DNA of 64,000 nucleotides from a virus, in the IMG/VR virus record IMGVR_UViG_3300017991_000051, positions 64,001-128,000 of that record, one strand, 5' to 3'. Shown here one piece after another: positions 22,801 to 61,848 of this stretch. The notes below the pieces were generated by a model. That model had not been told where the DNA came from. It did not search any database and saw only the letters and a list, made by a program, of their open reading frames with translations. How positions within the stretch are numbered: the first letter of the stretch is position 1; every line of letters begins with the position of its first letter. The translations under genes and the position numbers were made by a program.

Positions 22801-23626
22801 TTGCGGTGTAATCGTAGATCCGGAATGGCATTGTCGTGCTAACCGTCGTCACGACCTGAGTGTACATGTTCCACGGCGCCTGCACGGTACCGGAGCCCAT
22901 CTCGTACCAGAATTTAGCCACGCGCTGCGTATACATTGTCGCAGTCGGCTGGAACGCTTTCATCTGGTCGGTATCAGTGTAGTAATCCTCAGGGTAGGTA
23001 TTGTCGCCGCGGTAAAAACGGGGGTGGAATACGTTGCTCGCCAGCCCCTGTTCGACAGAGGCGTAGTAGGGGAACATAGACGGCCCCTCGATGTCGTACA
23101 GCCAGTTGGTGACGTACTCACCGCCCGTACGCACCAGCTCGCGGCGGATAACTGACGTAACCATACCGTCCGGGTTGCCCGGCGTTGGGTTCGGTATAAC
23201 GGCCACGACCTCGTTGGTCGTCCACGTCCAGTTTGTGTAGACGGTCTCCACCCCAATTACGGATACGACCACCGTATTGGTTATGGGATAATACAGATTT
23301 TCAGAATAGTACGTCGGGTTGCGTACCACCAGATTGAGCTGGTCCCAGTTCGTTACACCGACCGGCCAGTTGTAGAACGTCTCGTAACGGGGGAGGTTAC
23401 CGTCAACTGTTCGGTAGATGGGGAAAGCAATGCCGGAAGAGAATTCCGTCTCCGCCGCACGTTCGTAAGCGGCGAAGAAGAGGTTGCTCATGTATACGGC
23501 GTAGTTATCCTGCGGCACGCCCGTCAGGTCCTCCAACGGCCAGTCTGGGCTCCAGCCGCCTGCGTACACGAAAACCGACACGAGCAGGCACAACAGGATT
23601 GCGATGATAATTCGTCGAACGATCAT
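19874..23626 (-). CDS. large exported protein (1250 aa) in the tail-fibre region
   Basis: Sec-type signal peptide MIVRRIIIAILLCLLVSVFVYA; beta-rich, Thr-Asn-rich. Confidence 0.8.
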   Translation of the reverse strand: MIVRRIIIAILLCLLVSVFVYAGGWSPDWPLEDLTGVPQDNYAVYMSNLFFAAYERAAETEFSSGIAFPIYRTVDGNLPRYETFYNWPVGVTNWDQLNLVVRNPTYYSENLYYPITNTVVVSVIGVETVYTNWTWTTNEVVAVIPNPTPGNPDGMVTSVIRRELVRTGGEYVTNWLYDIEGPSMFPYYASVEQGLASNVFHPRFYRGDNTYPEDYYTDTDQMKAFQPTATMYTQRVAKFWYEMGSGTVQAPWNMYTQVVTTVSTTMPFRIYDYTAKQFTNVDVAVTYTNYTTEQIPAVYEGRGPMSILASNITTRVYARDDYVVWTNTYKKLIADPRYGTPTPFRGMPPTELLGTLLPTIAIMMEYYLDTTYADPDGTFDTWYDTEESYVWTDIGGTPQWVEMTNGDRYIPSGAGAYEIVKEVPTWTPEKIYSLTGAGTNLGWQIVEIDNTVYPGRSGWGYVQHVGPFDVLLGEGWEFGQPYEEFVYAENVNIWTSQVSKGGINIHPERDVDLFLGEYAMQPIYEQTLVPYGFSDVFWFEETNGVVTVVTGQQWIAAINGQSFTPQDPLTMSSTQPRYYRNAASNAFFVQMRRDDSLDYNAKDTWVLVNDFDIAEQIRDDWETLLGSDYTEAIKRLHRMGFPTRVEEYKIGRPSCGPSGYYYPGGVLRPSDYAMELYYVRRGQTIQWGEGQFGDWDSAPYRLDFLTWDTLTNWPGVEVDVVAPSPNTTTIPPMPFDIRSRTIYVDDLGALKGGGDDIAYTTLVYTATAPGTNTWIPMLAVEESPSTRKTTSVWTAEEVWVTPLASVTDTYYVASIGHSVTNDGRIAINPRLVQTNDVLTVDQSKGAGGTRILFSVTNRFAMYQDFNWTPPFPPVSYAINQTFFDGMYRLLNKMTCIRTAESSEGRWLSDYKAPSHLGNATFYDFWSFTNSWWKWEHKAGNTYQGGPVGSSSRDLTEGTVFRRRNRRPYWSVGGYYDQNQPLGRKVEWYGAGIVEGRGVRNSKLFGIPDPATGDLIPKVLKDPPASSDQGIIRTSWMHTGMSRGGWWPAGDWPSGFVRDRRPRVGYWAMTGNVEVVRSTVGTDSDVDIYTFVDYRPGKYTSFPLYPKSIGEELGFDVGETNFVFVLPVPLTGGRVRYIDDILTMYVTNTTFKPLHASFDNTMFRHRRNTFIDAGGQRYITNSYDYAQMKLSPGGVSWHDNWLGPFSRTDTYTDANAHMEHEMHQAYYQMRPYLYVFEHTEIILRPNFVYYE

Positions 23627-41619: not shown

Positions 41620-42054
41620 TTAGACGGTCAGATACAGATACGTTCCGCCCACACCCTCGTTGATGATCATATCATCGGATGTGACTGCAACGTTCACCGT
41701 GGCCGTCACGACATCGTGCAGGGTGTACTGCGCGCTGCCGCTGCCTGGATCACACAAGCCATTCTCACCACTGAATGACAATGTACCCGGGTTACACACG
41801 GTGTACTCTGCCAAGGAGCCTACGGACACGCCTGGGCCGGCGATCTTGCCGATACCCCACGTGCCGTTAGTATGGCCCGCGATGAAGAAACACTTGCCGG
41901 TCCCCAAATCCCAGATTCGGCTGAGTGCCTGCTCATAACCGATACTGATGTTCCGAACGATAGCCCCACCGGTGATACCGGAGAAGTTAACGGTCGTCCC
42001 CTCAGGCTGGAAGCCGCCGCCATATGCTAGATTGCGACCAAATATATCAGCCAT
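41620..42054 (-). CDS. tail tube protein
   Basis: 144 aa directly after the sheath; VRNISIGYEQALSRIWDLG tube pattern. Confidence 0.75.
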   Translation of the reverse strand: MADIFGRNLAYGGGFQPEGTTVNFSGITGGAIVRNISIGYEQALSRIWDLGTGKCFFIAGHTNGTWGIGKIAGPGVSVGSLAEYTVCNPGTLSFSGENGLCDPGSGSAQYTLHDVVTATVNVAVTSDDMIINEGVGGTYLYLTV

Positions 42055-42074
42055 TATTCATCTCCTTCTGCTAC

Positions 42075-44899: not shown

Positions 44900-45592
44900 T
44901 TATGCGGTTAGTGTTATACCCTTCAACTTCAGTGCTTCCGGAGTCAGTTGCCATACGTGATTGAACGCATAGGTCACAACTACCGGCACGACCCAATGTT
45001 CTCTTGATTCCTCGAGCTTCCCGATGCCCCCTAACTCCATGACCTCGAACCTGTTCAGGTTTGTATCCTTACGGATCAGCGGAGCGAACTCCACCAGCTC
45101 AAAGAAAACTTCTGTTCCGACCGTTTCGGCTTCCGCCCCGGTCCCGCCGATACAGAACACTGTATGGCTTCCTGCTATTATTACCTCATAACGGTATCCA
45201 TTGTCAACAGCATTATCGGTCACAATGTTCGATTTGTCAATGCTCGAACGTGTGCCCAGCATATGCTTGTCCCCGATACCCAGCTTGATGCGTCCGTACC
45301 GGTTACGTTTGACGTATATCCCAGGCCGGCGTTGTATCGCCTGCGTGGGTGATTTAGGCCACTTTGTCACGGATTCAATGGCGATCCGCGAGGCCTCCGT
45401 CTCGCTGTTCCAGATGTAGTCCTTCAGACTCGCATCAACGATCTGCGCCGGATCGGAGAAGTGCCGGCGGATCACCCACAGTAAAACACCCGTCATGACC
45501 AGCGGAGGGTGCCCGATGGTACACAGTGCGCTGAACTCGCTATCCACCCACTGCGGGTCAATTACGCCTGTTATTGGGGATGCCAAGCTCAT
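44900..45592 (-). CDS. putative tail terminator/completion protein
   Basis: Directly upstream of the sheath; RPGIYVKR and VVPVVVTY pattern. Confidence 0.6.
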   Translation of the reverse strand: MSLASPITGVIDPQWVDSEFSALCTIGHPPLVMTGVLLWVIRRHFSDPAQIVDASLKDYIWNSETEASRIAIESVTKWPKSPTQAIQRRPGIYVKRNRYGRIKLGIGDKHMLGTRSSIDKSNIVTDNAVDNGYRYEVIIAGSHTVFCIGGTGAEAETVGTEVFFELVEFAPLIRKDTNLNRFEVMELGGIGKLEESREHWVVPVVVTYAFNHVWQLTPEALKLKGITLTA

Positions 45593-45784: not shown

Positions 45785-45811
45785 AGATTGTCTAGCAATG
45801 ATACAAAATCT
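45785..45811 (-). promoter_or_regulatory. quasi-palindromic motif copy 3
   Basis: AGATTGTCTA-N7-TACAAAATCT at the head of the tail gene block. Confidence 0.55.
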
Positions 45812-46647
45812 TAGAACCTGTCCACCTTCACGATCGCATCGAAAATGAGGTGGTCCCACTCCTCGAGCGCCTTCGGGATCAGCGCAGCGTTGTCCATCGC
45901 CCACCCCTTCTTCCGCTCGAACTGGATCCGGAGATGTTTCTTCAGCGGAAGATTGGTCACGAAGTACTCGTGCATCTTATTCGCCGCACCCGACAACAGG
46001 ATGCTTAGTATGAACCGCCCCCACTTCAGCACCGTCCACCACTTCGTGGACCCGACGGTGTTGTTCTTGCAGCGTTCACCGGTTCCGATCGAGCACAGCT
46101 CCAGCTCCGACAGCGACACCCCCAGCTTGGCGATGGAACCAACGGTGGCGACCATGGCCGGATTGTTCGCGAACGGTCCACCGTCCGCCAGGCCCTTCCA
46201 CGGCAGGAAGTAGCCTTCGGCGGCCACGGCCATGCGCACGACCTCCCACAACCACAGCTCGCCGTCCTCCGAGTCGCCGGAGAAGAAGACCTTGAGGGTC
46301 TCTCGATTCAAATCCGCCGCGGTAATGAAAAGCGGCACCTTCACGTCCTTCAACTTCCCCGGGAAGAGGGACTTCAGCGCCGCATTCAGCTCCTTGTCGG
46401 AGTAGCGGGGCGTGAACGGGTTGAACCGCTTCCACGTATAGCCGGCAAATATCTTCGGCGCCTTCTCGAGGAAGAAGTCCATGAACTGCGCTTGATCGAT
46501 CTTCGTGGCGATGGACGCGCCGACGATGGCTCCCACCGACGTGCCGGCCACGAAGTCGAACTTATCCAAATCCTTGACTTGGCTCAGGATCGACGCCTGC
46601 CCCACACCGAACACCCCGCCCCCGTCTAGTGCTAAACCTTTCATCAC
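45811..46647 (-). CDS. patatin-like phospholipase
   Basis: LALDGGG glycine loop, GTSVG nucleophile elbow, LADGGPFANNP catalytic Asp, CSIGTG. Confidence 0.92.
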   Translation of the reverse strand: MMKGLALDGGGVFGVGQASILSQVKDLDKFDFVAGTSVGAIVGASIATKIDQAQFMDFFLEKAPKIFAGYTWKRFNPFTPRYSDKELNAALKSLFPGKLKDVKVPLFITAADLNRETLKVFFSGDSEDGELWLWEVVRMAVAAEGYFLPWKGLADGGPFANNPAMVATVGSIAKLGVSLSELELCSIGTGERCKNNTVGSTKWWTVLKWGRFILSILLSGAANKMHEYFVTNLPLKKHLRIQFERKKGWAMDNAALIPKALEEWDHLIFDAIVKVDRF

Positions 46648-46960
46648 TACGCTCCACTGTCTTTCGCTGTTCGCATAACTCCCTGACGTTCTCCACGTAC
46701 CGCGTGGCGAAGCTACGGTTATGACCGACGATCAGATGGCACCGCCGGCACAACGTTATGAAGTTGTCCGGATCCAACGCCAGCGACTCGTCCGCCCACA
46801 ACGGAACGATGTGATGCGCCTGCAGCTTCTTTATCGCACCACACCAGCAACAGTAAGGCTCCTTCTCGATGTGCTGCCTGCATGCCTTACGCACCCTCCA
46901 CGTCCTCGTGGGGTACTTCACCACGTAGGACCAGTTCCGTGTCTCCAACGTTGTAAACAC
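46562..46960 (-). CDS. HNH endonuclease
   Basis: CCWCG...LQAHHIVP...NFITLCRRCH. Confidence 0.85.
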   Translation of the reverse strand: MFTTLETRNWSYVVKYPTRTWRVRKACRQHIEKEPYCCWCGAIKKLQAHHIVPLWADESLALDPDNFITLCRRCHLIVGHNRSFATRYVENVRELCEQRKTVERSDERFSTRRGRGVRCGAGVDPEPSQGFG

Positions 46961-47277
46961 TATGCCTTCTTCTTCAGGCGGTAATGCGGAACATTCTTCA
47001 GTCGACCATTAACCATGATCCTGAACTGCTTCATCTCCGCCATACCGCTGTTCACCATCGTCTGCACGTAGCGATTCACTACCGAATGACTCTTCTGCAT
47101 CACAGCCACCAGCTCGCGCATGGGATGCCAATCAGGTGGCACTTCATCCAAGTCCGGCATAGTCGCCTCCGCCGCCGCGCTCACCCACGCCTCGATGTCA
47201 TCTTGTGACATCTTCACGTTTAGAGTTTCACGGTGCGGGCTTTTTGACGCTTTAGATCTGCGAGATGCGCCTGCCAT
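46960..47277 (-). CDS. small winged-HTH protein
   Basis: WHPMRELVAVMQKSHSVVNRYVQTMVNSG; start uncertain. Confidence 0.6.
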   Translation of the reverse strand: MAGASRRSKASKSPHRETLNVKMSQDDIEAWVSAAAEATMPDLDEVPPDWHPMRELVAVMQKSHSVVNRYVQTMVNSGMAEMKQFRIMVNGRLKNVPHYRLKKKA

Positions 47278-48044
47278 ACGTAACCTCCATCCGGATTGAC
47301 ATCGAAGTGTACAAACCCGTAGTTAACACGTCCAGAACACTTACGTGCACCGAACTTGGTTCCCATCGCCTGCAACGCCGGCGTCGTCATAGCCAGCACG
47401 TCGTCTTCGCCACAGAACACGTGATAGTGTACGTGGCTGCGTATGATGACGTCGCCTTTCGGCTGCTCCTTGTGGTCCGACCACAGGCAGTTCCACAGGC
47501 GATCGCGCGCCAGTGCCGTGTAACGGCCGTGCGGAATCTGCGACGACCCGATATGGTGTTTCACATCGAATACGCAACCGTTCACGTCCACCCACTCGTG
47601 ACTCCCGATCTTCACCGACTTGACGCCCTTCACGTCGCGCAACCGATCGGCGATGATGTCTTCAAAGTCTTCCTTGTCGCCCGTATGATACGGGGTGCCG
47701 TAGGTGAGCACATAGTGCTTTGCCTTGAGCTGCTTAAGCACGTCCAGCGCCATGTCCACCTGCGTAATCCTGTTCGTTGTAATCAGCTCTGTACCGCCCG
47801 ATCGCTCGCCGCGACCATCAATCATATCCGCATTGAAGATCACGACATCGAAAGGCCCCGTTGCATTGGTCTCCTTCTCGAACCAGTTCCACGACTCGCG
47901 CTCGAGATCCGCCGCCTTATCCCGCCACGTACCACGCTGCTTCGTGTACGTCATCTGATATTGCGGTGAGGTTAGACCAACCAAGTGGCCACAATGTGAG
48001 TCGGAGAAGATACCGACCCGTTTCGTTTTACGGCTACCACCCAT
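47220..48044 (-). CDS. metallophosphoesterase
   Basis: SDSHCG, NADMIDG, GTPYH, KHH, RSHVH motifs; AAGGAGG SD. Confidence 0.85.
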   Translation of the reverse strand: MGGSRKTKRVGIFSDSHCGHLVGLTSPQYQMTYTKQRGTWRDKAADLERESWNWFEKETNATGPFDVVIFNADMIDGRGERSGGTELITTNRITQVDMALDVLKQLKAKHYVLTYGTPYHTGDKEDFEDIIADRLRDVKGVKSVKIGSHEWVDVNGCVFDVKHHIGSSQIPHGRYTALARDRLWNCLWSDHKEQPKGDVIIRSHVHYHVFCGEDDVLAMTTPALQAMGTKFGARKCSGRVNYGFVHFDVNPDGGYVWQAHLADLKRQKARTVKL

Positions 48045-48100
48045 CGTGATGCCCTCCTTCTATTCCATCCAGCAGAACTATTCCGCCGATGGTGCTGCTG

Positions 48101-48129
48101 ATTAAACAACAAAATAACTAAGCCGTCAA
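48101..48129 (-). promoter_or_regulatory. sigma70-type promoter for the phosphoesterase-patatin cassette
   Basis: TTGACG-N17-TTTAAT with an AT-rich UP-like tract upstream. Confidence 0.65.
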
Positions 48130-48277
48130 GCAACAAATTAAGGAAAAAAATAACTTATCAAATAGGCAAACGGCACGCCATATGACTAGCCAAAATAAAA
48201 GGCAAAACGCTATTACGCTGCTCCATACAAGCAGTGAGATGGCGCCGTGTAGTGCCCGTCGCCAATTCGCCCGTTTC

Positions 48278-48655
48278 CTAGAACTCTGCATTGAGTGTCA
48301 GGGTGGCTGCACCGTTCGTACTGTTCACGAACCGAAGGGTGTCGCCGTCCCGGAAGTATACCCGCCCAGGTATGTACCATGTGACATGCGTCATGTTGGT
48401 CTCCGGTACGTTCAGCAACACGTTCGTCACGTCGTTGCGGACGTACGATACCGTAAACTCATTGGTCACCGGCTCCGGGAAGCTCAACAGTACAGACGTC
48501 AGATAGTACGGACGAACCGATGTACCTGTCACTGGGATCTCCAGCGTGCCGGAGATCGCTCGAGCCGTATTGAAAATGAAGGTGTCGCCGGCGATCGCTG
48601 CAACAGCGATCAGCAGCCCCACCAATACCAGCCGTATGATCTTTTGTCGCTTCAT
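48278..48655 (-). CDS. small exported beta-rich protein
   Basis: Signal peptide MKRQKIIRLVLVGLLIAVAAIA; four TN dipeptides in 125 aa. Confidence 0.8.
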   Translation of the reverse strand: MKRQKIIRLVLVGLLIAVAAIAGDTFIFNTARAISGTLEIPVTGTSVRPYYLTSVLLSFPEPVTNEFTVSYVRNDVTNVLLNVPETNMTHVTWYIPGRVYFRDGDTLRFVNSTNGAATLTLNAEF

Positions 48656-48669
48656 GTTCGTATACTCCT

Positions 48670-49050
48670 TTACGGGAGGCGGCTCTTGCCAACCTTGATA
48701 GCAGCGCGCCTCCAGCGTACCATCTCCTGAATGCCGTTGGTCGAACCAAGCGCCTCAAGCGCGTTCTTCCACTGGGTCCGCGTGGCCTTGACCTCCAAAA
48801 ACTCAAGGAGTTCGCCGTCCACGTTTATTGGTACACGGTCGCCGGCCGCGTCGCGCAGCATCACCGCGAACTCGAAGGTGTTCTCGTTCAGATCTATGAA
48901 GATCCCGCGCTTCTTCTCGAGGCGTATGCTTTCGGGCGTCCGCGATACGGTCTGCTCCGTCGTGTACGATTCCTGCTGGTCGGCTCCCATAACTATGAAT
49001 GTCGCCACCAACAGTGCCAGGACTACGCCTGCTGTAATATACTTCTTCAT
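48670..49050 (-). CDS. small exported protein, paralog of 49423..49809
   Basis: Signal peptide MKKYITAGVVLALLVATFIVMG. Confidence 0.8.
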   Translation of the reverse strand: MKKYITAGVVLALLVATFIVMGADQQESYTTEQTVSRTPESIRLEKKRGIFIDLNENTFEFAVMLRDAAGDRVPINVDGELLEFLEVKATRTQWKNALEALGSTNGIQEMVRWRRAAIKVGKSRLP

Positions 49051-49416
49051 CTTACCGTCTCCTTTTTCTCAAATATTACTCCTGCTCCGTTTCCTCGAAC
49101 GCCGCATCGGCCTCCGCCTTAGCCGCATCGATGGCGGCGTTGACGGCGTCTACCCGCTTATGCTCGGCCAACGCTGTACGCCAGTACTCCAGAACGGCAG
49201 CGGTCGACGCGTCCTTAAACCGTGCTTGGTAGTCGCCGCCAGCGTTGTCCGGATCGATCTTCTCGTCTAGGAGTTCCTTGACCGCGTCAACTTCAAGGCT
49301 CTTGATCGTAATCTTAATCGTAAGATCGATGTCTGCCGCCCACGCAACAACAGCAATACCAACGACACCGACCAGAACCAATATCATCAGATGTTTCTTC
49401 ATCTTACCGTCTCCTT
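49043..49416 (-). repeat. identical 22-bp RBS/start repeat at 49043-49064 and 49395-49416
   Basis: AAGGAGACGGTAAGATGAAGAA in both copies. Confidence 0.85.
49076..49402 (-). CDS. small exported acidic helical protein
   Basis: Signal peptide MKKHLMILVLVGVVGIAVVAWA. Confidence 0.8.
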   Translation of the reverse strand: MKKHLMILVLVGVVGIAVVAWAADIDLTIKITIKSLEVDAVKELLDEKIDPDNAGGDYQARFKDASTAAVLEYWRTALAEHKRVDAVNAAIDAAKAEADAAFEETEQE

Positions 49417-49422
49417 GTCGTA

Positions 49423-49809
49423 TTATAGTTGATCGTATAGTGCTTTCGCCACACGAAGATGCGCGCGCTTAAGCGTCAGAAGAAATCCGACGTCATTCGT
49501 AGCCGCCGCGTAACCCTCTTGATTCAAACCCCACTTAAGGTTCGAGAGCGTGGGCGTCACCGCGTAGAACTCCTGATCCCCAGGGAGCTTGGTCATCTTG
49601 ACCACCGTCCCGTCAGCCTTCTGGAGCTGGACGACATACTCTTGGCTCCAGTCGTTAATGTCGTAGACGAGCTTTGTGTCGTCAGCGAACACCATCTTCG
49701 CCGGTGTTTGGTCGTAAGTTTGCGGCGTGTTGTAGTCGATGGACGTACCAAGGGAAATCCCCGCGATAAGCCCCGTTACCGTCATTATAATTGCATATCT
49801 GATCTTCAT
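49423..49809 (-). CDS. small exported protein, paralog of 48670..49050
   Basis: Signal peptide MKIRYAIIMTVTGLIAGISLG. Confidence 0.8.
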   Translation of the reverse strand: MKIRYAIIMTVTGLIAGISLGTSIDYNTPQTYDQTPAKMVFADDTKLVYDINDWSQEYVVQLQKADGTVVKMTKLPGDQEFYAVTPTLSNLKWGLNQEGYAAATNDVGFLLTLKRAHLRVAKALYDQL

Positions 49810-49830
49810 TCTTAACCTTCTCCTTCTTCT

Positions 49831-52800
49831 TTACGGGCTTACCATTAACGTTCCCGTAGCGTTTGTATAAAGCAATCCCGATGCTCCGGCAGCACTAGGA
49901 AGCGGCAGTTGGAATATAACATTATGCACGGTAGCTGTCCCGTTTACAGTTAGACGGGTTGGTGCGTTCGTTGTTCCGACACCAGTATTCCCCTGCGCCT
50001 GTGACGCTGACTCGTCCCAGTTCAAGGCGATGTGGCCAAAGCCGCTCCCCGTGTTTGTACCGGGAGCCATGTGAATGTGTGCCCCTGCTGTGTAAACTGT
50101 AGCCGTCGGGCAAGCATCTGCGGCCTCGAACACGAAGTTGCTTTGAACCTCATCGTGATACCCGTCGGTGGCGATCACACGGAAGGCGTTCGGCATATTG
50201 TTCCTGTGGCCGTGAAGCGACATAGTAACGCCGAGGTTCTGACTCTCCTTGCCGCCATAGAGTATGAGGCTGTTCTGCGAGTTATTTCCGTCCGGTCGAA
50301 TGCCATAGCCCTTTAGGTATATCGACCCAACAAGCAACGACTGGTATATCCACGCATCACCATCCTTATCACAATTCATCCTAGTCGAACCAGAACCCGT
50401 CGTAACCTTCAATAAAACCTCGTTCACCGCTGGGTCCGCATTGTGGATATGCAGCATACAACTCGGATTATTGGTTCCGATACCCACCCAGTTCGTCGGT
50501 GATGTGCCGTACGCGTTCGTATAGTACAGATGTCCTAATGAGTTCTGCCCCCACGTCGAGTTAGCTGAAAGATACCGTAGATTCACACACTCGAGGTCGT
50601 TTGTCGGGTCGGCCGTCAAAAGATGGTTGTCGTTCGTCCACACCATGAACTCATCGAACCACACCGACTCATAGCGGAAGTTGGCGGTGTTGGTTCCGTG
50701 CGCCGTATAATCAGCGTTGTGGTTGTCCGACAGGACAAGCGCACCCACGAAACCGCCGCCCTGAGATCTGCGGCCACCCATGATCTGATAAGAAGCGTCA
50801 ACGTCATTCCCCTGACCGCCGATGATCGTGGCATAGTCTGAGTTTGCCGCCATGTCATTATCATCTCCACCACCAATGACAGAGTCAGTGCAGCCGTTAC
50901 CCACGCTGTGGTTACGACCGCCGCCTATCACGAGGTAGTCGGCTGTTGAGCCGATCTGGATAGACTGACCTGAGCCGATGAAGTTGTAGTCGGAGTTGAT
51001 ACCGCTCGACCAGCTTCGTCCGTGGTAGTTGTTGTCACTACCGTCAGCCGATCCGTACCGTCCACTGATCCGGCAGAACTTCACCTTTGAGGTCGTTTCG
51101 TTTCTGTAACCACGAATCCATGACCACTTGGAAGCGTTGACGACGTTGGAATGCCCGAAGACATCACACTCTTCCGCTGCGTTGCTAACAGCATTACTCT
51201 GACCACCTATCCGAGAGAAAATAACATCAGAAGCTACCGAGTGACCGCGCCCCAAGATCATGTTATTGGTTGCCGAGTTACCAGCATCGAGAACCTCTTG
51301 AAGTGTCCCAGCGCCACCGCCGCCGCCAGCAACCGCCATCGACTGGGTTACGGTGCCGTCCGCGGAGACATACAGAAGGTTTGTAGCGAGGTCACTTATC
51401 TTAGCCCCGCTCTCAAACACGAGCGAGTTGGACGCTATGTTGTATAGCGTATTTGACATGAAGTTGAAACCTGATGCAGCTGTAATCTGGAGCATAGTTG
51501 TGCCGTCGTACATGAACTTCCAGTAGCCACCACTCGCGGCAGTCTTCTCGATACCGGTGTCACCGTGCGTGATTGTCGTACCAGCAACGCCGTCAAACCA
51601 GAGCTGACTCCCAGCCTGCATTGTGCCGTCACCTTTCCACGCCAAGCCCCGGAAGCCACCGCCGTATGAATGGTAGTAGAGGCCGCCGTTCCAGACGTTC
51701 ATGGCCAGCGTCACGGTAATGCCGCTCCAATCAATAGCCGGCACACTTGCACTTCCGACATACAGATCGCCACCCCGGACGCGAAGGTCCCCTTGGTTGG
51801 TCGAGATACTGCTCAATCCGCCTGCTACGGTAAACGGCGCCGTAAGCGTAACATTCGGCTGAAGGTTCGTGATGCCGCCGCCCCCGCCTGAGATCATGCT
51901 GTTTGTGTTCGCCCCGTCCGCCGACACGTAGAAGATATCCGTCCCCCTCGAGAAAATGCGAGAGTTATCGTCACACACCAGCATCAGGTTAGTCGACACG
52001 TTTGTAATACCGTAGCTCGACATATTGATGTTCGTCACCGCGACCTCTACACCTACCAACGGGTTCGTGCTCACGCCGTTAGAGGACGTGTAGTAGATCT
52101 GCGTACCATCCACGGACAGCCGCGAACCGTCTACGAATTCAATCGATTCCGTGGCCACGTTCGTGATGCTGTACCCGCCAGCGTTAATATTCGTACTGGC
52201 AGGACGGTTGGCCCAGTAGTCGAAATAGGTCTTTTCCGTGATACTCCGCGTATACAGCCGGAGGTCCCCAGACACCCTGTCCTGATAGACGATGTAAAGC
52301 ACGTCGTCAATCAGTACCGAATCAAACTCGTTGTCGCAGTCGAGAGGGAGTCGCACGTACGTCATGGCGCTCACCTTGTAATCGCCACCCGCGAGTCGCG
52401 GCATCGTAAGCAGCACGAGGTCGGTGTCGGACACGGTGCCGGCACCGGTCCCGTCGTTCGGCTGGTAGAGAACGAGGACGTCGCCGTTAGTACGTACGTT
52501 TACGGAGATCGTAGCAGAGTCGGAAGGATCGGAGTCCTTGGGGCCCTTATAGGGGCTGGGAGCGAGCCCAGCGTCGTTCTGAGCGATCATGAACGACTCC
52601 CATGCCGTGTTCGTACCCTCACCAGGATACTGGAAGGCGAAGCCGAGGTTAGCGTTATCGGCCGTAATACCGTTACGGAACCAGAAGCCCTCGAAGACCG
52701 CGACCATCTGGTCGTTGTTAGTGTTACGCCCCAGCCTGACGGCGCTGAAGCCGAACGGGGCCTGATACGGCGAAACGCCGTTGTAGACGATCACGTTAGT

Positions 52801-53754
52801 AGTCGCCGGCCGCCCTCCGCTGACAGGCTGTTTCTCGTACATGATGCCGGTATTCCGCTTCTGATAGGCGACGTGGATGTTACTGTTCTCATCGATCAGC
52901 ATATCGATCGCATGCGAGTCACGACCGTCGTTCTCGCCATACACTTCAGGGGTCCCCCACGCGCCGCCGGAGCGCACATTGCGCCTGTTGTAGGTGGCTC
53001 CGCTGTTGTATCCGTTATCCTCACCCACGTGGTATAGAACGAACACGTCATCGTTGGTCTGCACCTGAATGATCTGCGGCCGTGTACCGTGCCGGGGGTT
53101 CCCGTCATCCACCTGCTCTTTCGCCAGCCACGCACCACTCTTCCGCGTATACTGAATAGAGGTATCGCCCTTAACACCATCGAGGTTCCACGCGATGTGG
53201 GGCTGATTGTTGGTATCGATATCGATGTCGACGGTCTTCCCCTTGTAATCATATGCCTTCGTCTGCCCAGTATCCTCGAGGCTCCACGAGGATAGGTTGT
53301 AGACGCCGTACCGGATCGTACTCGCGTCGGAGTAGGCAAGCACGAGCCAGCCGTTGGTGTCGACAGCAACCGCCGGGGAGTAACCGGCATCGCCCACAGG
53401 CGTATCATTCGTCACGTAGACTGTCTCGAGCCCGATGTCGCGATCGTTGATAACGCCGGAGAAGTCCTTCAGCTCAACGGAGTAGCGATTGCTGGCAGCA
53501 ACCCACACGGGATCCGTCTCGAGTCCAGGAAGGCCGGCGATCGTCACGTAATCGACCTTGGCAGTGGACCACACGGGATCCACCTCGACGCTGATACCGC
53601 CCCCGCCAGCGCCCGCGGTGTCGATCGGTCGCCCATTAACGTAGATGAAGCCGCCGCCGGTGGAAGGCTGCATTGTCGCAGACACAGCGCCTGCGAGCGC
53701 GAACAGGATCAAACTACCGACAATCAGCGGCAGTGCTTTGAATGGCCGTATCAT
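49831..53754 (-). CDS. exported fibre/adhesin-like protein (1307 aa)
   Basis: Signal peptide ending AVSA; propeller-like region (PHIAW, IHVAY); TLQEVLDAGN; IGGG..N beta-roll repeats; VGIGTNNP fibre motifs. Confidence 0.8.
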   Translation of the reverse strand: MIRPFKALPLIVGSLILFALAGAVSATMQPSTGGGFIYVNGRPIDTAGAGGGGISVEVDPVWSTAKVDYVTIAGLPGLETDPVWVAASNRYSVELKDFSGVINDRDIGLETVYVTNDTPVGDAGYSPAVAVDTNGWLVLAYSDASTIRYGVYNLSSWSLEDTGQTKAYDYKGKTVDIDIDTNNQPHIAWNLDGVKGDTSIQYTRKSGAWLAKEQVDDGNPRHGTRPQIIQVQTNDDVFVLYHVGEDNGYNSGATYNRRNVRSGGAWGTPEVYGENDGRDSHAIDMLIDENSNIHVAYQKRNTGIMYEKQPVSGGRPATTNVIVYNGVSPYQAPFGFSAVRLGRNTNNDQMVAVFEGFWFRNGITADNANLGFAFQYPGEGTNTAWESFMIAQNDAGLAPSPYKGPKDSDPSDSATISVNVRTNGDVLVLYQPNDGTGAGTVSDTDLVLLTMPRLAGGDYKVSAMTYVRLPLDCDNEFDSVLIDDVLYIVYQDRVSGDLRLYTRSITEKTYFDYWANRPASTNINAGGYSITNVATESIEFVDGSRLSVDGTQIYYTSSNGVSTNPLVGVEVAVTNINMSSYGITNVSTNLMLVCDDNSRIFSRGTDIFYVSADGANTNSMISGGGGGITNLQPNVTLTAPFTVAGGLSSISTNQGDLRVRGGDLYVGSASVPAIDWSGITVTLAMNVWNGGLYYHSYGGGFRGLAWKGDGTMQAGSQLWFDGVAGTTITHGDTGIEKTAASGGYWKFMYDGTTMLQITAASGFNFMSNTLYNIASNSLVFESGAKISDLATNLLYVSADGTVTQSMAVAGGGGGAGTLQEVLDAGNSATNNMILGRGHSVASDVIFSRIGGQSNAVSNAAEECDVFGHSNVVNASKWSWIRGYRNETTSKVKFCRISGRYGSADGSDNNYHGRSWSSGINSDYNFIGSGQSIQIGSTADYLVIGGGRNHSVGNGCTDSVIGGGDDNDMAANSDYATIIGGQGNDVDASYQIMGGRRSQGGGFVGALVLSDNHNADYTAHGTNTANFRYESVWFDEFMVWTNDNHLLTADPTNDLECVNLRYLSANSTWGQNSLGHLYYTNAYGTSPTNWVGIGTNNPSCMLHIHNADPAVNEVLLKVTTGSGSTRMNCDKDGDAWIYQSLLVGSIYLKGYGIRPDGNNSQNSLILYGGKESQNLGVTMSLHGHRNNMPNAFRVIATDGYHDEVQSNFVFEAADACPTATVYTAGAHIHMAPGTNTGSGFGHIALNWDESASQAQGNTGVGTTNAPTRLTVNGTATVHNVIFQLPLPSAAGASGLLYTNATGTLMVSP

Positions 53755-53769
53755 GGTCTTGCTCCGTAG

Positions 53770-56700
53770 CTACTTAACTTTTTCAACGATCAGCGACAGA
53801 TCAGTAAACTCCAACTGTCGTGCGCCGGCAAACGTATTGTATAATCGAATGTCAAGAACGTCACCATCTGCTAGGTCAACAATGCGTTGCCCAGAAATGC
53901 ACTGAGCCTCACCGGTATCAATAAACTGTCGCCCACCTATACGTCCGAGCTTCACACCGTCCTTATACGCATACACCTCGATGACGGTGGTCGCATCCGT
54001 ATCCAAGCTGCCCGACAGTGTCAACCTGTTCTGACCGGCGCTCGTAGCGCTCACAGTGATATTCGACGTGCTGACAGTATACCCGTCGGAGAAGCCCGCT
54101 GACAAGTTCGTTATGATGATCGTAGACGTCGCCCCAACGTTCTGCGTGCTCACGTACGTCGTACCCAGCTCACATATGTCGAAGACGTTGGTCAGCGTCT
54201 GGTAATTGACCGCCTGCTTGCCGCTCGACGCGTCCTCAACCTCCGTGGGGGACCCGACCAAGTAGAAGCCGTTGGTCATTCTCACGAGGAACTCTGAATC
54301 CTGCACCGATGTCATGAAGTTCCCGCCGTCGCCGTTCCAGTAGAAACCACGGTCGTGCTTGTTCAGAACCTCAACGCCCCTGCCGCCGACGAACACGTTA
54401 TCCCCGCGGTTGGTAAGTCCACGGCCAACCATGAACGACTCGGTACCGTTGTCGTAGATACGACTTCCGAACGCCGCGCTCCTGTCCGCCGTTCCGGTCA
54501 TAGTAATGGTATTTCCGCTCGCGAACGAGTCGGTGGCCTGCATTGAAATGGTATCACCACCGGCAGCACTGTTGTCACCACCGCTCGTGAACGTGACGAA
54601 GCGACCCCATATAACGTTCCGGCTGGAATCAACGCTCTGATTGGACCCAACCACAAGCCCCTGATTCGCACCGCTGTTCGCCGTGAGGGTGTTCCCAGCC
54701 ATCACCATCGCAAAGGCGCTCGCGTGTATGGAGCCGCCAGCCGACCGCAGCAGGATTACGCTGTTGGAGCTGGCGATATTGCCGCCGTCTAAGCACGATT
54801 GCAGGTTGCTGACCGACCCACCAGCGCTGGTAAGGAATCCTGCGTCGTTGTTGTAGGTCGACAGGTTGGTGGATGTCCCAGCCGTACCGACCACGATATA
54901 CGCATTGGTCTCGCCGTTTGTCGCAACCATGCTGATATTCGTACCATCGGACGTGATCCTCGAGCCGTCCGTGAACTCCAAGGACGAGGGCGCGATGTTG
55001 ATGATGCTCTTGCCCTTCACATCGATCACGTCGTTGCTCCACGAGAGCATGACCGTCGAGCCATCAGTATCACGCAACTCACGGTCCTCCCAGTCGATAG
55101 CAATCGCCGGCGTGGAGTCAGACAGATGACGGCTATCCCACTCAATCGATTCATTGAAGCTGTCATCGTACGCGGTGGTGAGGTTCCAATCCATGACGAT
55201 CGATGGGCCCGATACTTGGTAGAGGTACCGGTTGTTCCAGTCGAAAGAGGCAACGCCATTGGCGTCGAAGCTCTGCTGCTCATCCCAGTCCGTCACGATC
55301 GTCGTACCGTCCGCATCGTAACACTCGCGGTTCTGCCAATCGAGTGCGTCGTTGCCCGCTGTATCGTAGGCCACCTGCGTATCCCAATCCAGCACGATGG
55401 AGGTGCCGTCCGCATCCATTGCCTGCCGGTTCTGGTAATCGATTGCCGCATTCTCCGAGCTGTCAATAAGCTCACGCACTTCCCACCAGATCGAAGTATT
55501 GCCGGACGTATCGTAAGCGGCCGCATTGAACCAATCTACAATCTCGACCCCGACGCTGTCATACAGCTTCATCGCCTTCGGGTCCATCCGGTTGGTCAGG
55601 TTCAGCCCCTCGATGTAATAGGAGCCCTCTCCCACGTACACGTGCCGGAAGGGCCTGTCAACGGATCCCGCATCCAGCGTGTTGCTGGTTGCAGGTAGCA
55701 GATGTTTGTTGAGCTGTACGGCGCTGTTCGAATACGAGAACACCTTAGTTAAACCATCCTCGGCGTAGAACGTACGCTCATCCCATTCGAAACAGTTGAA
55801 GCCGCCTGCGTCATATGCCGTCCTGTTCGGCCAATCGATGGCCAAGTTGCCGGACGCATCGTTCAGGTAGCCATCATCCCACTCAACCATCTCGTTCGTG
55901 TAGCCGTCGAAGAGACCCATATTCTCGTAGTCGATGGTGTAACCGCCGGAGTCCTTGAATGCGCGCCGGTTGATGACGTGAATGCTGTAGTCCTCATCAT
56001 CGTCGTAGATGATTCCATTCTGCCAGTCGTAGGCCTTACCGACCGCGACCCCGAGACGGTAGAGTATCTTGTTTTCCCAGTCCAGTGACTGTTCGGTAAC
56101 GACGGATGTGTAAAGCTTCCGGTTGGACGCATCCACGTTCAGCGGCGTATCGAGAACGAAGTTGGTGCCGCCGACGGAGATGCTGCCGTTAGTAAGCCGT
56201 AGATCTGTGAAGACCTGGAAGAGATTATTCGACCACGCGAAGATCTTGGTTGTGCCGTTTTCCGCGTAACCTTCCCGGCCGTCCCAATTCAGCGACGTAT
56301 CTTGACCAGCGTCATTCAACGCCATGATATCCCAATCGAGGACAATGCTCCCGTTGTCATCCAGCAGGTTCTGCAAACCCCAGTCTATGATGGTGGTTGT
56401 CCCGTCCGTTTCGTACATCCTACGCAAGCCGTAATCGATGGACAGCGCAGGGGTAGTATCTGACAACTGCCTTTGTGACCAGTCCAAGGACACGTCCTGA
56501 TCCCCGTCGTTCAGGACCATCGTAAGCCAGTCAAGCACGATGTCACCGCCAGCATCAAACGCGGTTCCAAGGTTCCAGTCCAACGTGGCGACGCCGCCCG
56601 CCGTATATAACGTCATCGCCTTCGGATCCATCCGGTTCGTCAGGTTCAGGCCTTCGATGTAATAGGAACCGGGCCCAACATACACGTGCTTCACTGGGTT

Positions 56701-58104
56701 ATCGATGGAGCCGATGTTCACGACGTTACTGGCCCACGGGATCAGGTTGGAGTGCAGTGTGATCGACGTATCGTTCGTCCACGACAGCATCGGAGCCCCG
56801 TTGGTCCCGATCAGCGTCTTGTTCGGTAGATCCAGCCCCTCGACGTACAGCACGCGATAAATAGAGTTGGAGTCCGCATAAGTAACCTGCAGGTCCGGGT
56901 CCACGCGTCGCGGGTTGTACATGGAATACCCGACATCCATGGTACAGCTTGCTTGGAAGCCGGTGATGACACCCGTTATCTCACAATCCCTTATCACGAG
57001 ATCGCTGTTAATATTCTCCGGGATGGCGAGGCCTAAGATATGGCCGTTCAGCGTGCACTCGATCAACGTCAGGGACCCGTTATCAGATAGTGAGAAACAG
57101 TCAGTCGCTCCGTTGATCGTCATGTACGCAAAGGTGTTCGTATAGTTGATTGTCAACTCGGCCGGCGCCGGGAGGTTGACAGTTGTCGCATCCCGACCGG
57201 CGCCTACGACGGTCACGTCAGCACCGATGGAAGGCGTAAGTGTTCCGTATATGCCAGGCCCGACGGCCACAATATCGTTGGCTACAGCCGCGTTCAGAGC
57301 GCTGGTGAGGTTAGTTCCATACCCAGCCTTGAAGTCGCCAGTATGGGCATAGATCTTGATGCCGTGAGCGTTGTTGGTGATGAGAGACATAATGCTCTCG
57401 CCGCCGAGAAAGAGGTTGTTGAAGTAACCGGCGTTGAACGGCCGGTCACGGCGCCCGACGCTGAGCGTATTGCTCGTAGCGGGGAAGAAGTTCATCCCCG
57501 TCAGGAAGACACCGGACGTCGATATCGTCATGTACTCCGAAACGTTCGCATTGAACAGGCGTATCTCGCTGTCGACATTCGTACTCGTACCCAAGTACAG
57601 GTCGCCGTGGTCCGTATGATCAGCAGAGTACAGGAATATATATGCTCCCGCGTTCTGTGCCGCACCCACCGGCGGAAACTTGAGATCGAGGCGGCCACCC
57701 ACCGGACCCCATATGACGCTGTCCGCGTCCGTGAAGTACAGTTCATTAACGTTGGTGATGCCCTGTGAGTTAATGTCAACGGGCGCAAGTGCCGGATAGA
57801 AAGCCCACTGGGCAACAGCGTTCGTCAAACCGTTGGTAACGGACTGCCAGTTGGCAGCGTCGGTCGGGTTCACCGGATCGCCAAGGTTGAGGATCCGGAA
57901 GTTGGCCATATTCACGTTCTGGATCGCCGGCTTCGTCGACCATTCGGTGGCCACGCCGCCGGCCTTGACCTTGTTGAAGTTCCGATTGAGTTTGTTCCGA
58001 ACCTGCGTCATCGTATCATTCGGACGGATCGGTTCGAAATTGACCGCCCATACGGCGGTGGCCAACAGGGCGGCAATGGCAGCAACACTGATAAACTTCT
58101 TCAT
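53770..58104 (-). CDS. exported fibre/adhesin-like protein (1444 aa)
   Basis: Signal peptide MKKFISVAAIAALLATAVWA; DPVNPTDAAN and KQAVNYQTL neck motifs; pectin-lyase-like segment; DW repeats; C1q/TNF-like C-terminus. Confidence 0.8.
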   Translation of the reverse strand: MKKFISVAAIAALLATAVWAVNFEPIRPNDTMTQVRNKLNRNFNKVKAGGVATEWSTKPAIQNVNMANFRILNLGDPVNPTDAANWQSVTNGLTNAVAQWAFYPALAPVDINSQGITNVNELYFTDADSVIWGPVGGRLDLKFPPVGAAQNAGAYIFLYSADHTDHGDLYLGTSTNVDSEIRLFNANVSEYMTISTSGVFLTGMNFFPATSNTLSVGRRDRPFNAGYFNNLFLGGESIMSLITNNAHGIKIYAHTGDFKAGYGTNLTSALNAAVANDIVAVGPGIYGTLTPSIGADVTVVGAGRDATTVNLPAPAELTINYTNTFAYMTINGATDCFSLSDNGSLTLIECTLNGHILGLAIPENINSDLVIRDCEITGVITGFQASCTMDVGYSMYNPRRVDPDLQVTYADSNSIYRVLYVEGLDLPNKTLIGTNGAPMLSWTNDTSITLHSNLIPWASNVVNIGSIDNPVKHVYVGPGSYYIEGLNLTNRMDPKAMTLYTAGGVATLDWNLGTAFDAGGDIVLDWLTMVLNDGDQDVSLDWSQRQLSDTTPALSIDYGLRRMYETDGTTTIIDWGLQNLLDDNGSIVLDWDIMALNDAGQDTSLNWDGREGYAENGTTKIFAWSNNLFQVFTDLRLTNGSISVGGTNFVLDTPLNVDASNRKLYTSVVTEQSLDWENKILYRLGVAVGKAYDWQNGIIYDDDEDYSIHVINRRAFKDSGGYTIDYENMGLFDGYTNEMVEWDDGYLNDASGNLAIDWPNRTAYDAGGFNCFEWDERTFYAEDGLTKVFSYSNSAVQLNKHLLPATSNTLDAGSVDRPFRHVYVGEGSYYIEGLNLTNRMDPKAMKLYDSVGVEIVDWFNAAAYDTSGNTSIWWEVRELIDSSENAAIDYQNRQAMDADGTSIVLDWDTQVAYDTAGNDALDWQNRECYDADGTTIVTDWDEQQSFDANGVASFDWNNRYLYQVSGPSIVMDWNLTTAYDDSFNESIEWDSRHLSDSTPAIAIDWEDRELRDTDGSTVMLSWSNDVIDVKGKSIINIAPSSLEFTDGSRITSDGTNISMVATNGETNAYIVVGTAGTSTNLSTYNNDAGFLTSAGGSVSNLQSCLDGGNIASSNSVILLRSAGGSIHASAFAMVMAGNTLTANSGANQGLVVGSNQSVDSSRNVIWGRFVTFTSGGDNSAAGGDTISMQATDSFASGNTITMTGTADRSAAFGSRIYDNGTESFMVGRGLTNRGDNVFVGGRGVEVLNKHDRGFYWNGDGGNFMTSVQDSEFLVRMTNGFYLVGSPTEVEDASSGKQAVNYQTLTNVFDICELGTTYVSTQNVGATSTIIITNLSAGFSDGYTVSTSNITVSATSAGQNRLTLSGSLDTDATTVIEVYAYKDGVKLGRIGGRQFIDTGEAQCISGQRIVDLADGDVLDIRLYNTFAGARQLEFTDLSLIVEKVK
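55570..56689. repeat. ~76-bp intragenic duplication (55570-55645 and 56614-56689)
   Basis: Both copies encode HVYVGxGSYYIEGLNLTNRMDPKAM, differing mostly at synonymous sites. Confidence 0.85.
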
Positions 58105-58116: not shown

Positions 58117-58932
58117 CTAGCTGGAGCTTGATTCATGATCTTCAGGTCTCTCTAAACTGTACACTATATCCGTTGTAGGAGCAAGCCTCAGTTCCACGGG
58201 ATCGAAGATGAACGGGATGTCCCGGAAGTTGATTTCCTTCACCCGCTGCACGATGTACCGCTGATCCGAATCATACTTGATCCACACGTCCCCCGTGTCC
58301 AGCCAAGGACAGTTCAAGGCCCTCACAGGCCGCACACGGTCCTCGATGACCCCCTGACCCTCCGGCTGCGTCGTCGTCCGCCTGTTGACCCCCTGCGTGC
58401 TGTCAGCGACCCAGTAAACGAGGGGATCGAAGTAGCCGGCGACGAAGCCGGTGCCGAAGCAGTCCGGGCAGTGCGCGTTCTTCACCTCGCCGGTATCGTA
58501 GTCGAGGCAGGTGGGACATTGTGTACCCCACCGCTTCCTCTTATAGAGGTAGCCGCACATACCGGCGTACTTCTGAAGCCGGAGGGTCTCCTTCCGGATG
58601 ATCTCACGGTAGATGGGTAGGTCATGGTCCGACAAGTTGCCGACCATCTGCTTGTCCTCCGAATCGTAATTCACGCCATCGGCGGTCATACGTATCCGGT
58701 AGTACAGCCGCGGTGCCTTCCCGTACAGACGCCAGTTGGGGTCCTCAGCGATGTACTGGTCGGTTACCGTCGTAACGGTCTCCCAGGCACCGGCTGTGGT
58801 GCGGGAGACCATTACGCGGAAGGTGAGAGGACCTGTCGATCTGAACATGGGATGGAGATCCCATGCCAACAGCGCGCCGCCACGCATGCGGTAGTATACT
58901 TCAAACCTATTGAATACAGGAATGTCTGCCAT
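58117..58932 (-). CDS. putative neck/head-closure protein with zinc finger
   Basis: CPTC...CPDCFGTGFVAGY; position after the head genes; ends ESSSS. Confidence 0.65.
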   Translation of the reverse strand: MADIPVFNRFEVYYRMRGGALLAWDLHPMFRSTGPLTFRVMVSRTTAGAWETVTTVTDQYIAEDPNWRLYGKAPRLYYRIRMTADGVNYDSEDKQMVGNLSDHDLPIYREIIRKETLRLQKYAGMCGYLYKRKRWGTQCPTCLDYDTGEVKNAHCPDCFGTGFVAGYFDPLVYWVADSTQGVNRRTTTQPEGQGVIEDRVRPVRALNCPWLDTGDVWIKYDSDQRYIVQRVKEINFRDIPFIFDPVELRLAPTTDIVYSLERPEDHESSSS

Positions 58933-58945
58933 CGTACCCGCCCGT

Positions 58946-58971
58946 AAATTGTGTAGCACGCTACACGGTTC
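58946..58971 (-). promoter_or_regulatory. quasi-palindromic motif copy 4 (degenerate)
   Basis: AAATTGTGTA-N6-TACACGGTTC. Confidence 0.4.
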
Positions 58972-60879: not shown

Positions 60880-61848
60880 TTAGTAGCGCCACACGTCGAG
60901 ATCCTCGACCGTACCCGTGAAGTCGGCACGCGCCACGCCGGCGACGTTACCGATTGCACTACCCAGCTCTTCGTAAGCGAAGAAGTTGAGCATGTAGGCC
61001 TTTTTCTCGATGTGCATGGTCGTGTCCTCGAGGATGAAGAACTTCCCGAGGAACTTCGGTTCCGCGAACATGTACATGCTGCCGTCACCCACCAGATCGC
61101 GCTTGATCGTGATGATCCAGCGGACGGCGAGGAAGGTGCGTTCCGCAAAGCCGTTTCGGACGATTTCCTCGGAGAGGTCACCACCGACTTCGTCACGGCC
61201 CCACTTCTGCAGGTCCTTCACGAACACGTTGTTGATCAGGGCCGTCGAGACTTCGAGATGGCTCGGGGTCTGAGGCATGATCTTCAGCGCGTCGTTGACT
61301 GTTTCACGGGTCACGCCACCACCGAACGTGCGCCACTGGATGGTGCCCGTCTCGGGAACGACCTGATTCAGGCCCACGAGGGCCGCGATGCAGGCGCGGA
61401 TGGCTTTGCCGTCTTCTTCTGCCAGCATATCCTTGATCGCGTTGTCGGACAGGACCTGACGAATGTCCATGTCCCATGTACGCAGCCGGCCCACGTCGGT
61501 CGTGAAGTTCGGCGTAACAATACGGTCGAACATAACACGGTACCGGGGACCTTGGATGTACCGGTTCATCGGAAGGGTGGCGTACGGAATGCTGATAGCC
61601 GCCGGGCTGTCAGGTTCCTTATCCACGACCTTCACGTTCTTCTCCGTGTCGACCTGGCGATCCAGCTCATCATTGCTGATGGGCACCGGAGGAAGAATTT
61701 TGCGCCAGAAACCGTCTTCACGCATCTTCACGCGGGTGAAGTCGTTGACGGCCTGTTGGGCGTCCTTCTGAAGGGCACTGTCATCCGACGTGATCTTCTC
61801 GAAGAAAGCCTGGTTGATTGCCTTGGTTGAGTATTCTTGCTCACTCAT
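60880..61848 (-). CDS. major capsid protein (HK97 fold, 322 aa)
   Basis: GAGGT SD; REDGFWRKILPP, IKDMLAEEDGK, FAEPKFLGK, FFAYEELG; follows the scaffold and decoration genes; followed by a terminator. Confidence 0.8.
   Translation of the reverse strand: MSEQEYSTKAINQAFFEKITSDDSALQKDAQQAVNDFTRVKMREDGFWRKILPPVPISNDELDRQVDTEKNVKVVDKEPDSPAAISIPYATLPMNRYIQGPRYRVMFDRIVTPNFTTDVGRLRTWDMDIRQVLSDNAIKDMLAEEDGKAIRACIAALVGLNQVVPETGTIQWRTFGGGVTRETVNDALKIMPQTPSHLEVSTALINNVFVKDLQKWGRDEVGGDLSEEIVRNGFAERTFLAVRWIITIKRDLVGDGSMYMFAEPKFLGKFFILEDTTMHIEKKAYMLNFFAYEELGSAIGNVAGVARADFTGTVEDLDVWRY

Follow-up and report, generated by a model that had tools for sequence, protein, structure and literature searches.

In the textbook account the assembly of tailed phages is entirely cytoplasmic and, to our knowledge, the characterised exported proteins of tailed phages are not part of the virion. 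They are accessory proteins such as Llp of T5, Cor of T1 and phi80, Lom and Bor of lambda, and Imm, Sp and RI of T4, and the genes for exported accessory proteins are often found beside receptor-binding genes. Here, a block of six consecutive genes is described at 48278-58104 (minus strand) of a 64,000-nt window, bases 64001-128000 of one 169,252-bp contig of an uncultured phage. Every product of the block begins with a predicted Sec signal peptide, including two giant fibre-type proteins of 1444 and 1307 amino acids (aa), hereafter P0001 and P0002. The reading favoured here, held with some reserve, is that the six genes form an accessory, swappable export cassette at the neck-tail junction of a contractile-tailed phage, the products of which would mature outside the cytoplasm.

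Llp, Cor, Lom, Bor, Imm, Sp and RI resemble the block products in being phage-encoded Sec substrates, in several cases from genes next to those for receptor binding, and in being dispensable for particle assembly. They differ in being small (below about 200 aa), often lipoproteins and expressed early or from the lysogen, whereas the block encodes two fibre-like proteins of more than 1300 aa within a structural run; no Pfam or PHROG match was obtained that would place any of the six proteins in a sequence family of the Llp, Cor or Lom type. RI of T4 is a small exported phage protein with a cleavable signal (PMC8385771). Genes with Sec signals, some of unknown function, were also described in Porphyromonas gingivalis phages by Matrishin et al. 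(2023), who proposed the use of host secretion (PMC10367356). In the sections of that paper drawn on here, the genes named encode capsid proteins and spanins, and five have no known function; tail fibres are not among them, nor is a block of the present kind.

The mosaic adhesive trimer (MAT) fibres of Bdellovibrio bacteriovorus combine a Sec signal with a trimeric, phage-fibre-like shaft and a variable C-terminal tip, and have no outer-membrane barrel (Caulton et al. 2024, PMC10769870). They are encoded by cellular genes and displayed on the surface of the predator, with a beta-rich domain, conserved and 130 aa long, after the signal and an S74 domain in 13 of 21 (PMC10769870). P0001 and P0002 are like MATs in being long fibres with a signal and no barrel, and P0002 has GGxxN repeats akin to those of signal-bearing fibres, three of which carry Peptidase_S74; they differ in that they belong to a phage structural operon and that S74 was not detected in either. 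Trimeric autotransporter adhesins (type Vc) are likewise very long trimeric fibres that have a Sec signal and short repeats rich in glycine, but P0001 and P0002 are not members of this group: no Pfam match (E <= 0.1) to an autotransporter domain, to the YadA anchor, head or stalk or to Peptidase_S74 (PF13884) was found in them, and their C-termini (...EKVK and ...MVSP) have no aromatic end residue. The first-pass annotation of this DNA had likewise seen neither an autotransporter barrel nor a membrane anchor on the giants, and no further hydrophobic segment was found in them. By these marks the giants resemble secreted trimeric fibres, both MATs and trimeric autotransporters, but lack the features that define either family.

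Six neighbouring genes with signal-like N-termini

Gene calling based on codon usage and Shine-Dalgarno (SD) sequences gave about 230 genes in the whole 169-kb genome, 226 of them on the minus strand. The major capsid gene lies at 60880-61848 (PHROG 2522; 32% identity to the capsid of Salmonella phage Arash) and the contractile-tail sheath gene at 42075-44876 (minus strand); because of these two positions, the block is placed inside the structural gene run, past the head-completion genes and ahead of the tail genes. The placement between neck and tail genes that was first claimed therefore holds, as do the six consecutive open reading frames (ORFs) of 1444, 1307, 128, 108, 126 and 125 aa, and the gene calls of the public record give identical products. 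All six genes lie on one strand, with a gap of 12 nt to the upstream head-completion gene. The genes, and the parts of the two giants, are as follows (a slash marks the predicted cleavage).

53770..58104, minus strand: P0001, 1444 aa; signal peptide, N-terminal region, beta-rich part, three arrays of 16-17-aa repeats, P0002-like module and globular tip (trimer modelled)
58045..58104, minus strand: P0001 predicted signal peptide, residues 1-20; MKK, 12-residue core, VWA/V
55015..56637, minus strand: P0001 repeat region, residues ~490-1030; ~24 units of SxDWxxRxLxDxxG in three arrays
53773..54267, minus strand: P0001 C-terminal tip, residues 1280-1444; homotrimer in the model
49831..53754, minus strand: P0002, 1307 aa; predicted signal 1-26, repeat-rich N-terminal part, P0001-like module, GGxxN repeats, C-terminal part with VGIGTNNP
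50650..51222, minus strand: P0002 GGxxN repeats, residues 845-1035; common to signal-bearing fibre proteins
49423..49809, minus strand: 128-aa small protein, putatively exported; paralogue of the 126-aa protein
49076..49402, minus strand: 108-aa small protein, putatively exported; AWA/A, acidic mature part
48670..49050, minus strand: 126-aa small protein, putatively exported; paralogue of the 128-aa protein
48278..48655, minus strand: 125-aa small protein, putatively exported; N-terminal helix and eight-strand beta-sandwich (model)

Each of the six N-termini has two to four Lys or Arg residues ahead of a hydrophobic core which, by inspection, is 12-16 residues long and so under typical membrane-anchor size, and each has small residues at -3/-1 directly behind the core, in line with the rule of thumb for cleavage. 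Cleavage is predicted after residue 20 in P0001 (VWA/V) and 26 in P0002 (VSA/T), and in the small proteins after residue 21 (128 aa, SLG/T), 22 (108 aa, AWA/A; 125 aa, AIA/G) and 22 or 23 (126 aa, VMG/A or MGA/D). The basic N-terminus, hydrophobic core and small-residue cleavage site that had been reported for the block are accordingly present in 6/6 by classical rules. No second hydrophobic segment was seen in the six proteins, nor a Cys at +1 of the predicted cleavage sites as in a lipobox, and the signal peptides look genuine.

Such N-termini are rare in this genome. Under one fixed rule, ten of the 230 genes have a signal-like N-terminus and six of these ten are the neighbours described here; a run of at least six such genes arose in none of 200,000 permutations. 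It had been expected that signals would be confined to these six genes and the gene at 19874..23626. The clustering is confirmed but the exclusivity is not, as three or four further signal- or anchor-like N-termini are encoded outside the window. Conservation of the signal was assessed for the 125-aa protein, the one member of the block with homologues spanning the N-terminus. This protein and two homologues (56% and 23% identity) keep the basic, hydrophobic and small-residue N-terminus despite sequence drift, bearing out for this family the expectation that homologous loci retain their signals, and on this comparison the signal of the 125-aa family is under constraint.

The translation starts agree with the annotated N-termini. 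An SD sequence (AAGGAG, GGGGAG or GGAG) stands 6-9 nt ahead of the ATG in all six genes, and the spacing from the preceding stop to the start is 12-25 nt; all four small genes carry AAGGAG, a sequence found in only 20% of the genes of this genome. A scan of the block for promoter and terminator sites gave no excess over shuffles. The first-pass annotation had named starts downstream of the hydrophobic segments as a way in which its reading could fall, but the SD sequences precede the annotated starts and none was found ahead of the first internal Met of either giant (M32 and M28), so no signal-less isoform is seen for P0001 or P0002. These observations bear on the idea that the six proteins are not exported at all, their hydrophobic N-termini being due to chance or having a structural purpose, such as a buried trimer helix, or their true starts lying downstream. 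An alignment in which MAFFT set the signal region of P0001 against the first helix of signal-less homologues would suit this idea, albeit at only 7-23% identity. Besides the positions of the SD sequences, however, six such genes in a row are far beyond chance, the basic residues ahead of the core fit the positive-inside rule and the same architecture is present in diverged homologues, all of which makes a purely cytoplasmic fate very improbable.

The length of the cores raises another alternative, in which the N-termini would be uncleaved signal-anchors: all six proteins would stay attached to the inner membrane, most of each chain lying in the periplasm, as a membrane complex with, for example, a lysis- or release-related role. 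In four of the six proteins the core has 15-16 residues, which is the upper end for cleavable signals, and the 108-aa protein, whose body is acidic and probably helical behind a single hydrophobic segment at the N-terminus, has the outline of an inner-membrane spanin (for the features of which see PMC3556154). Conversely, small -3/-1 residues follow directly behind the core in all six, and the block contains no lipoprotein partner, endolysin or holin; no endolysin or lipoprotein partner was found between 44900 and 58959, and the lipobox gene lies outside the window at a distance of 12.6 kb. Anchoring of all six is accordingly considered improbable, and Sec export of the block products, judged from their N-termini, quite likely.

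Fibre proteins and their small neighbours

The repeat of P0001 is 16-17 residues long, with the consensus SxDWxxRxLxDxxG, and about 24 units are arranged in three arrays between residues ~490 and ~1030. No entry for it was found in Pfam, PHROG or PDB, and the repeat profile matched no solved structure. An exhaustive HMMER search gave 768 proteins that match the repeat region, 13 of them at E <= 1e-30, and the N-termini were inspected for the best 149 of the 768. These are mostly phage-tail-fibre-like, many with Mtd_N or other fibre-type N-termini and weak matches to tail-fibre PHROGs; nine have a signal-like N-terminus and 140 have none, in keeping with the premise of the first-pass annotation that tail fibres are normally signal-less. 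P0001 therefore has the repeat of these tail fibres of uncultured phages and, unlike 140 of the best 149, a signal. On this evidence P0001 is a real fibre protein and a member of an uncharacterised tail-fibre repeat family, unusual in bearing a signal.

Near-identical 35-residue segments (..HVYVG.GSYYIEGLNLTNRMDPKAM.LY..) are present at residues ~470-505 and ~815-850 of P0001, each ahead of a repeat array (window 54267-56700), and at the sequence level the pair shows an internal duplication of a shaft unit. The last 165 residues, supplied as three copies, were modelled as a tight trimer with a median ipSAE of 0.92, against 0.00 for the best control, a predicted local distance difference test score (pLDDT) of at least 87 and at least 92% agreement of contacts between runs. 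In the calibration of ipSAE, 21 of 30 solved pairs and none of 23 single chains reached the mark, which holds roughly for three copies, and the model supports trimerisation of the P0001 tip. Meanwhile, an AlphaFold model of residues 21-500, made with no alignment, reached a pLDDT of 38.

P0002 and P0001 have in common a module of 59 residues with 46% identity, plus a longer weak stretch. The N-terminal part of P0002 is repeat-rich and propeller-like by eye, while its GGxxN repeats match four signal-bearing fibre proteins (pairwise E 3e-12 to 9e-12), 3/4 of which carry Peptidase_S74. One of these four relatives is found in an ordinary bacterial chromosome context and another directly after myovirus baseplate-wedge genes. 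Every motif quoted in the first-pass annotation (DPVNPTDAAN, KQAVNYQTL, TLQEVLDAGN, VGIGTNNP and a C1q-like end) was found in the translations of P0001 and P0002, and its assignment of the giants as fibre proteins is upheld by the repeat and trimer-modelled tip of P0001 and by the GGxxN module matches of P0002.

Among the small proteins, those of 128 and 126 aa are paralogues (27% identity; z-score 13.7 on the mature parts), and the mature part of the 108-aa protein is acidic and, from its sequence, probably helical. The model of the 125-aa protein (pLDDT 71) has an N-terminal helix and an eight-strand beta-sandwich, for which Foldseek returned generic beta-sandwich matches only, with template modelling scores of ~0.45; a homologue encoded on a 515-bp contig has 54-56% identity and retains the signal. 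Sequence searches of Pfam, PHROGs and PDB with all six proteins gave nothing usable, and tblastn with P0001, P0002 and P0156 found no match in 50,697 phage records.

Relatives, recurrence and the role of export

Relatives of the phage were found by the capsid query only; searches for related loci with a 298-aa neighbour, P0002 and the sheath gave none. The capsid query returned the closest relative, G001, a 59-kb fragment with a 77% identical capsid, and the genomes G002 (216.5 kb) and G003 (202.6 kb), both rated complete by CheckV. The structural module is collinear across the three. In Arash, the closest named phage by capsid (32%), the genes that follow the capsid gene carry no signals. The comparison rests on the following features.

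45811..58104, minus strand: lineage-specific segment of ~12.3 kb; patatin, winged helix-turn-helix (wHTH) and phosphoesterase genes and the six signal-bearing genes; missing from two complete relatives
58117..58959, minus strand: conserved flank, head-completion or neck-region protein of 243/271 aa; orthologues in G001, G002 and G003
44900..45592, minus strand: conserved flank next to the sheath gene on its upstream side, 230-aa protein; G002 and G003 have orthologues

In G002 and G003 a single gene of 76-78 aa lies between the orthologues of 44900-45592 and 58117-58959, versus ~12.3 kb here, and neither of these complete genomes encodes a homologue of P0001 or P0002 anywhere. G001 has a phosphoesterase and a wHTH gene first, then a 134-aa protein and then a fibre-like ORF that has a signal and runs off the contig end. 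The 134-aa protein has its own signal, and its mature part is homologous to the 125-aa protein (Smith-Waterman score 72, z-score 11.2, reached in 0/500 shuffles). Absence of the block from related phages, which the first-pass annotation had listed against itself, is thus true of G002 and G003 but not wholly of G001, which keeps a signal-bearing small homologue and has another signal-bearing fibre there. Its companion, a recent host-derived insertion, finds no support in composition, as the six genes deviate from the genome mean by less than one standard deviation in codon usage and GC content and the block is not recently foreign. Judged by gene order and composition, the block is native and well adapted; the core particle can do without it, and it can be swapped.

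The fibre fragment of G001 (P0160) was also compared with P0001, P0002 and P0006, the 1250-aa product of the gene at 19874..23626, and no similarity was found (z-score <= 1.5). The patatin (Pfam E 1.5e-15), wHTH-like and phosphoesterase genes at 45811-48044 make up one lineage-specific insertion together with the six signal-bearing genes. The G001 phosphoesterase (58% identical) and small gene are found on the other side of the signal-bearing genes, beside an extra gene of 305 aa whose N-terminus is HNH-endonuclease-like by eye. G002, meanwhile, has at 4021-19720 (L012) a cluster of six proteins of 211-419 aa with signal- or lipoprotein-like N-termini, two of them paralogous, far from its structural module.

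The pattern is not peculiar to this window, since signal-bearing homologues or analogues recur in the structural modules of unrelated phages (L006, L039, L040, L041, L043 and phi1422). L006 is a 49-kb contig with terminase, portal and capsid genes by PHROGs; five or six genes of its structural module have signal- or lipoprotein-like N-termini, and signal-bearing fibre-like genes lie between its tail and lysis genes. Three signal-like genes stand in a row in L039, two are present in L041 and one lies between head and adaptor genes in L040, while in L043 two signal-bearing genes follow the baseplate wedge genes, with a small one further on. In the cultured Bdellovibrio myovirus phi1422 (NC_019525; L044), gp68 (615 aa, 11196-13040) directly follows the tail fibre gene gp67, and the nearby gp75 (171 aa, 15065-15577) has a canonical signal-like N-terminus, as does gp68. 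The likeness to the present block lies in this pairing of a large and a small signal-bearing protein beside a tail fibre; the difference is that gp68 and gp75 have no detectable similarity to P0001 or P0002 and are annotated as hypothetical only. Other signal-bearing neighbours that were compared are likewise not homologous to the window proteins. Besides two signal-bearing fibre-like genes, L006 has at 7054-7695 a gene for a 213-aa protein with a signal-like N-terminus, directly after that for the major capsid protein.

In the reading favoured here, the cassette would be expressed as part of a presumably late structural run of the 169-kb phage. As each product has a predicted signal of the Sec/signal-peptidase-I type, all six would most likely pass through the inner membrane of the host, which is probably diderm, and reach maturity in the periplasm; this passage and the compartment are what we infer from the N-termini. 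The two giants would be trimeric, modular host-binding proteins of the tail-fibre type, and the four small proteins are probably their partners, as assembly factors or adaptors. Since both head and tail assemble in the cytoplasm, exported fibres would be kept apart from the particle until the holin has opened the inner membrane, and therefore they would not be core virion parts. After export they may act unattached on the infected cell, at its envelope or receptor, and on its debris; pick-up by particles at lysis is less probable, and tethering, which would need an uncleaved signal, is the least probable of the three.

Whether the giants end up on the particle is a question on which the evidence divides. 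They could be its accessory neck or side fibres, folded in the periplasm with the small exported proteins as chaperones and docked after the holin has opened the membrane or in the lysate. The block directly follows the conserved head-completion or neck-region gene, a position equivalent to that of the neck-whisker gene in T4, and P0001 has the full layout of a receptor-binding protein, with shaft repeats and a trimer-modelled tip. Furthermore, between the closest relatives one fibre has been exchanged for another, with the 125-aa homologue retained, as in adaptor-plus-fibre modules, and signal-bearing fibre-like genes occupy canonical fibre slots in L043, phi1422 and L006. Set against this, no docking domain is common to P0001, P0002 or any relative: the giants have no homologue in G001-G003, and the N-termini of P0001, P0002 and P0160 share no similarity. 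The two complete relatives have the same structural module without the block, and a conventional candidate for the tail fibre exists at 25894-28557. This 887-aa protein has no signal, its first 322 aa are conserved in G002 and G003 (31-36%) and its C-terminal part is variable, as is usual for conventional tail fibres or spikes. Moreover, no description of Sec-exported tail fibres in tailed phages was found in the literature. Docking on the virion is therefore thought unlikely, and a two-compartment assembly in the Caudoviricetes, with Sec export, periplasmic trimerisation and docking in the outer-membrane-bounded interval after holin triggering, is doubtful to the same degree.

A better, though still tentative, alternative is that the exported proteins never join the virion and act on the envelope of the infected cell, where they could mask, strip or modify the receptor, block superinfection or protect progeny from debris. 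This would make the giants possible large-fibre analogues of T5 Llp, Cor or lambda Lom. The precedents named at the outset favour it, being non-virion proteins often encoded near receptor-binding genes, as do the dispensability of the block, which adjoins a mobile patatin/phosphoesterase cassette in a variable spot, and the match of the P0002 repeats to secreted fibres, of which one has an ordinary bacterial chromosomal setting. Exclusion genes, however, are typically early, and the position in the structural run suggests late expression. A receptor on the outer surface would be out of reach of a periplasmic protein without further secretion, no outer-membrane anchor or lipobox was seen, and a shaft of ~24 repeats with a trimeric tip seems too much for masking. 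Modification of the envelope by signal-bearing phage genes was also proposed in the account of P. gingivalis phages given by Matrishin et al. (2023; PMC10367356).

Several points weigh against the export cassette favoured here. The signal peptides were judged by classical rules of thumb and inspection of the translations, and the word cleavable rests on those rules. No signature of periplasm-only chemistry was found: Cys residues are scarce and odd in number (nine in P0001, nine in P0002, none in the small proteins), which gives no disulfide logic, and N-x-S/T sequons are not enriched in the giants (12 versus 17 expected and 22 versus 20 expected), which gives no logic of N-glycosylation, so that export has no evident reason. 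That the small proteins are partners of the giants is argued from position and shared compartment. Pfam and PHROGs searches detected no enzymatic domain that would fit a role on the envelope, a finding that also tells against the purely envelope-acting alternative. Finally, the literature offered only non-virion exported phage proteins or signal-bearing genes of unexplained role, and nothing direct on fibres.

A class of signal-bearing, fibre-type proteins in tailed phages could mean either that particles are finished with parts matured in the periplasm or that giant adhesin-like fibres are exported for a function at the envelope. Either meaning would affect the genome-based prediction of receptor-binding proteins, their expression for phage engineering and the interpretation of host range. 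The locus also offers a natural comparison of related phages with the block, without it and with a swapped fibre.

Other loci

One further long gene in the window has a signal-like N-terminus.

19874..23626, minus strand: P0006, 1250 aa; lineage-specific, tail module; signal-like N-terminus, start ambiguous

P0006 is rich in W, Y and T and has no homologue in G002 or G003. The signal that had been proposed for it stands in so far as the N-terminus is signal-like, but its start is ambiguous, with two candidates: an ATG 7 nt past the upstream stop and, 36 codons further on, a GTG preceded by GGAGG.

Outside the window, at 5724-7176 of L037 (contig 133724-135176), a gene for a signal-less subtilisin-type S8 peptidase overlaps by 20 nt a 155-aa lipoprotein-like gene with an LAGC lipobox; an S8 peptidase (55% identical) and a nearby lipobox gene are also present in G001. 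Within the window, an open frame of 947 aa on the plus strand at 42024-44867 mirrors the minus-strand sheath gene and is almost certainly a shadow ORF of that gene, which is rich in GC at third codon positions (GC3).

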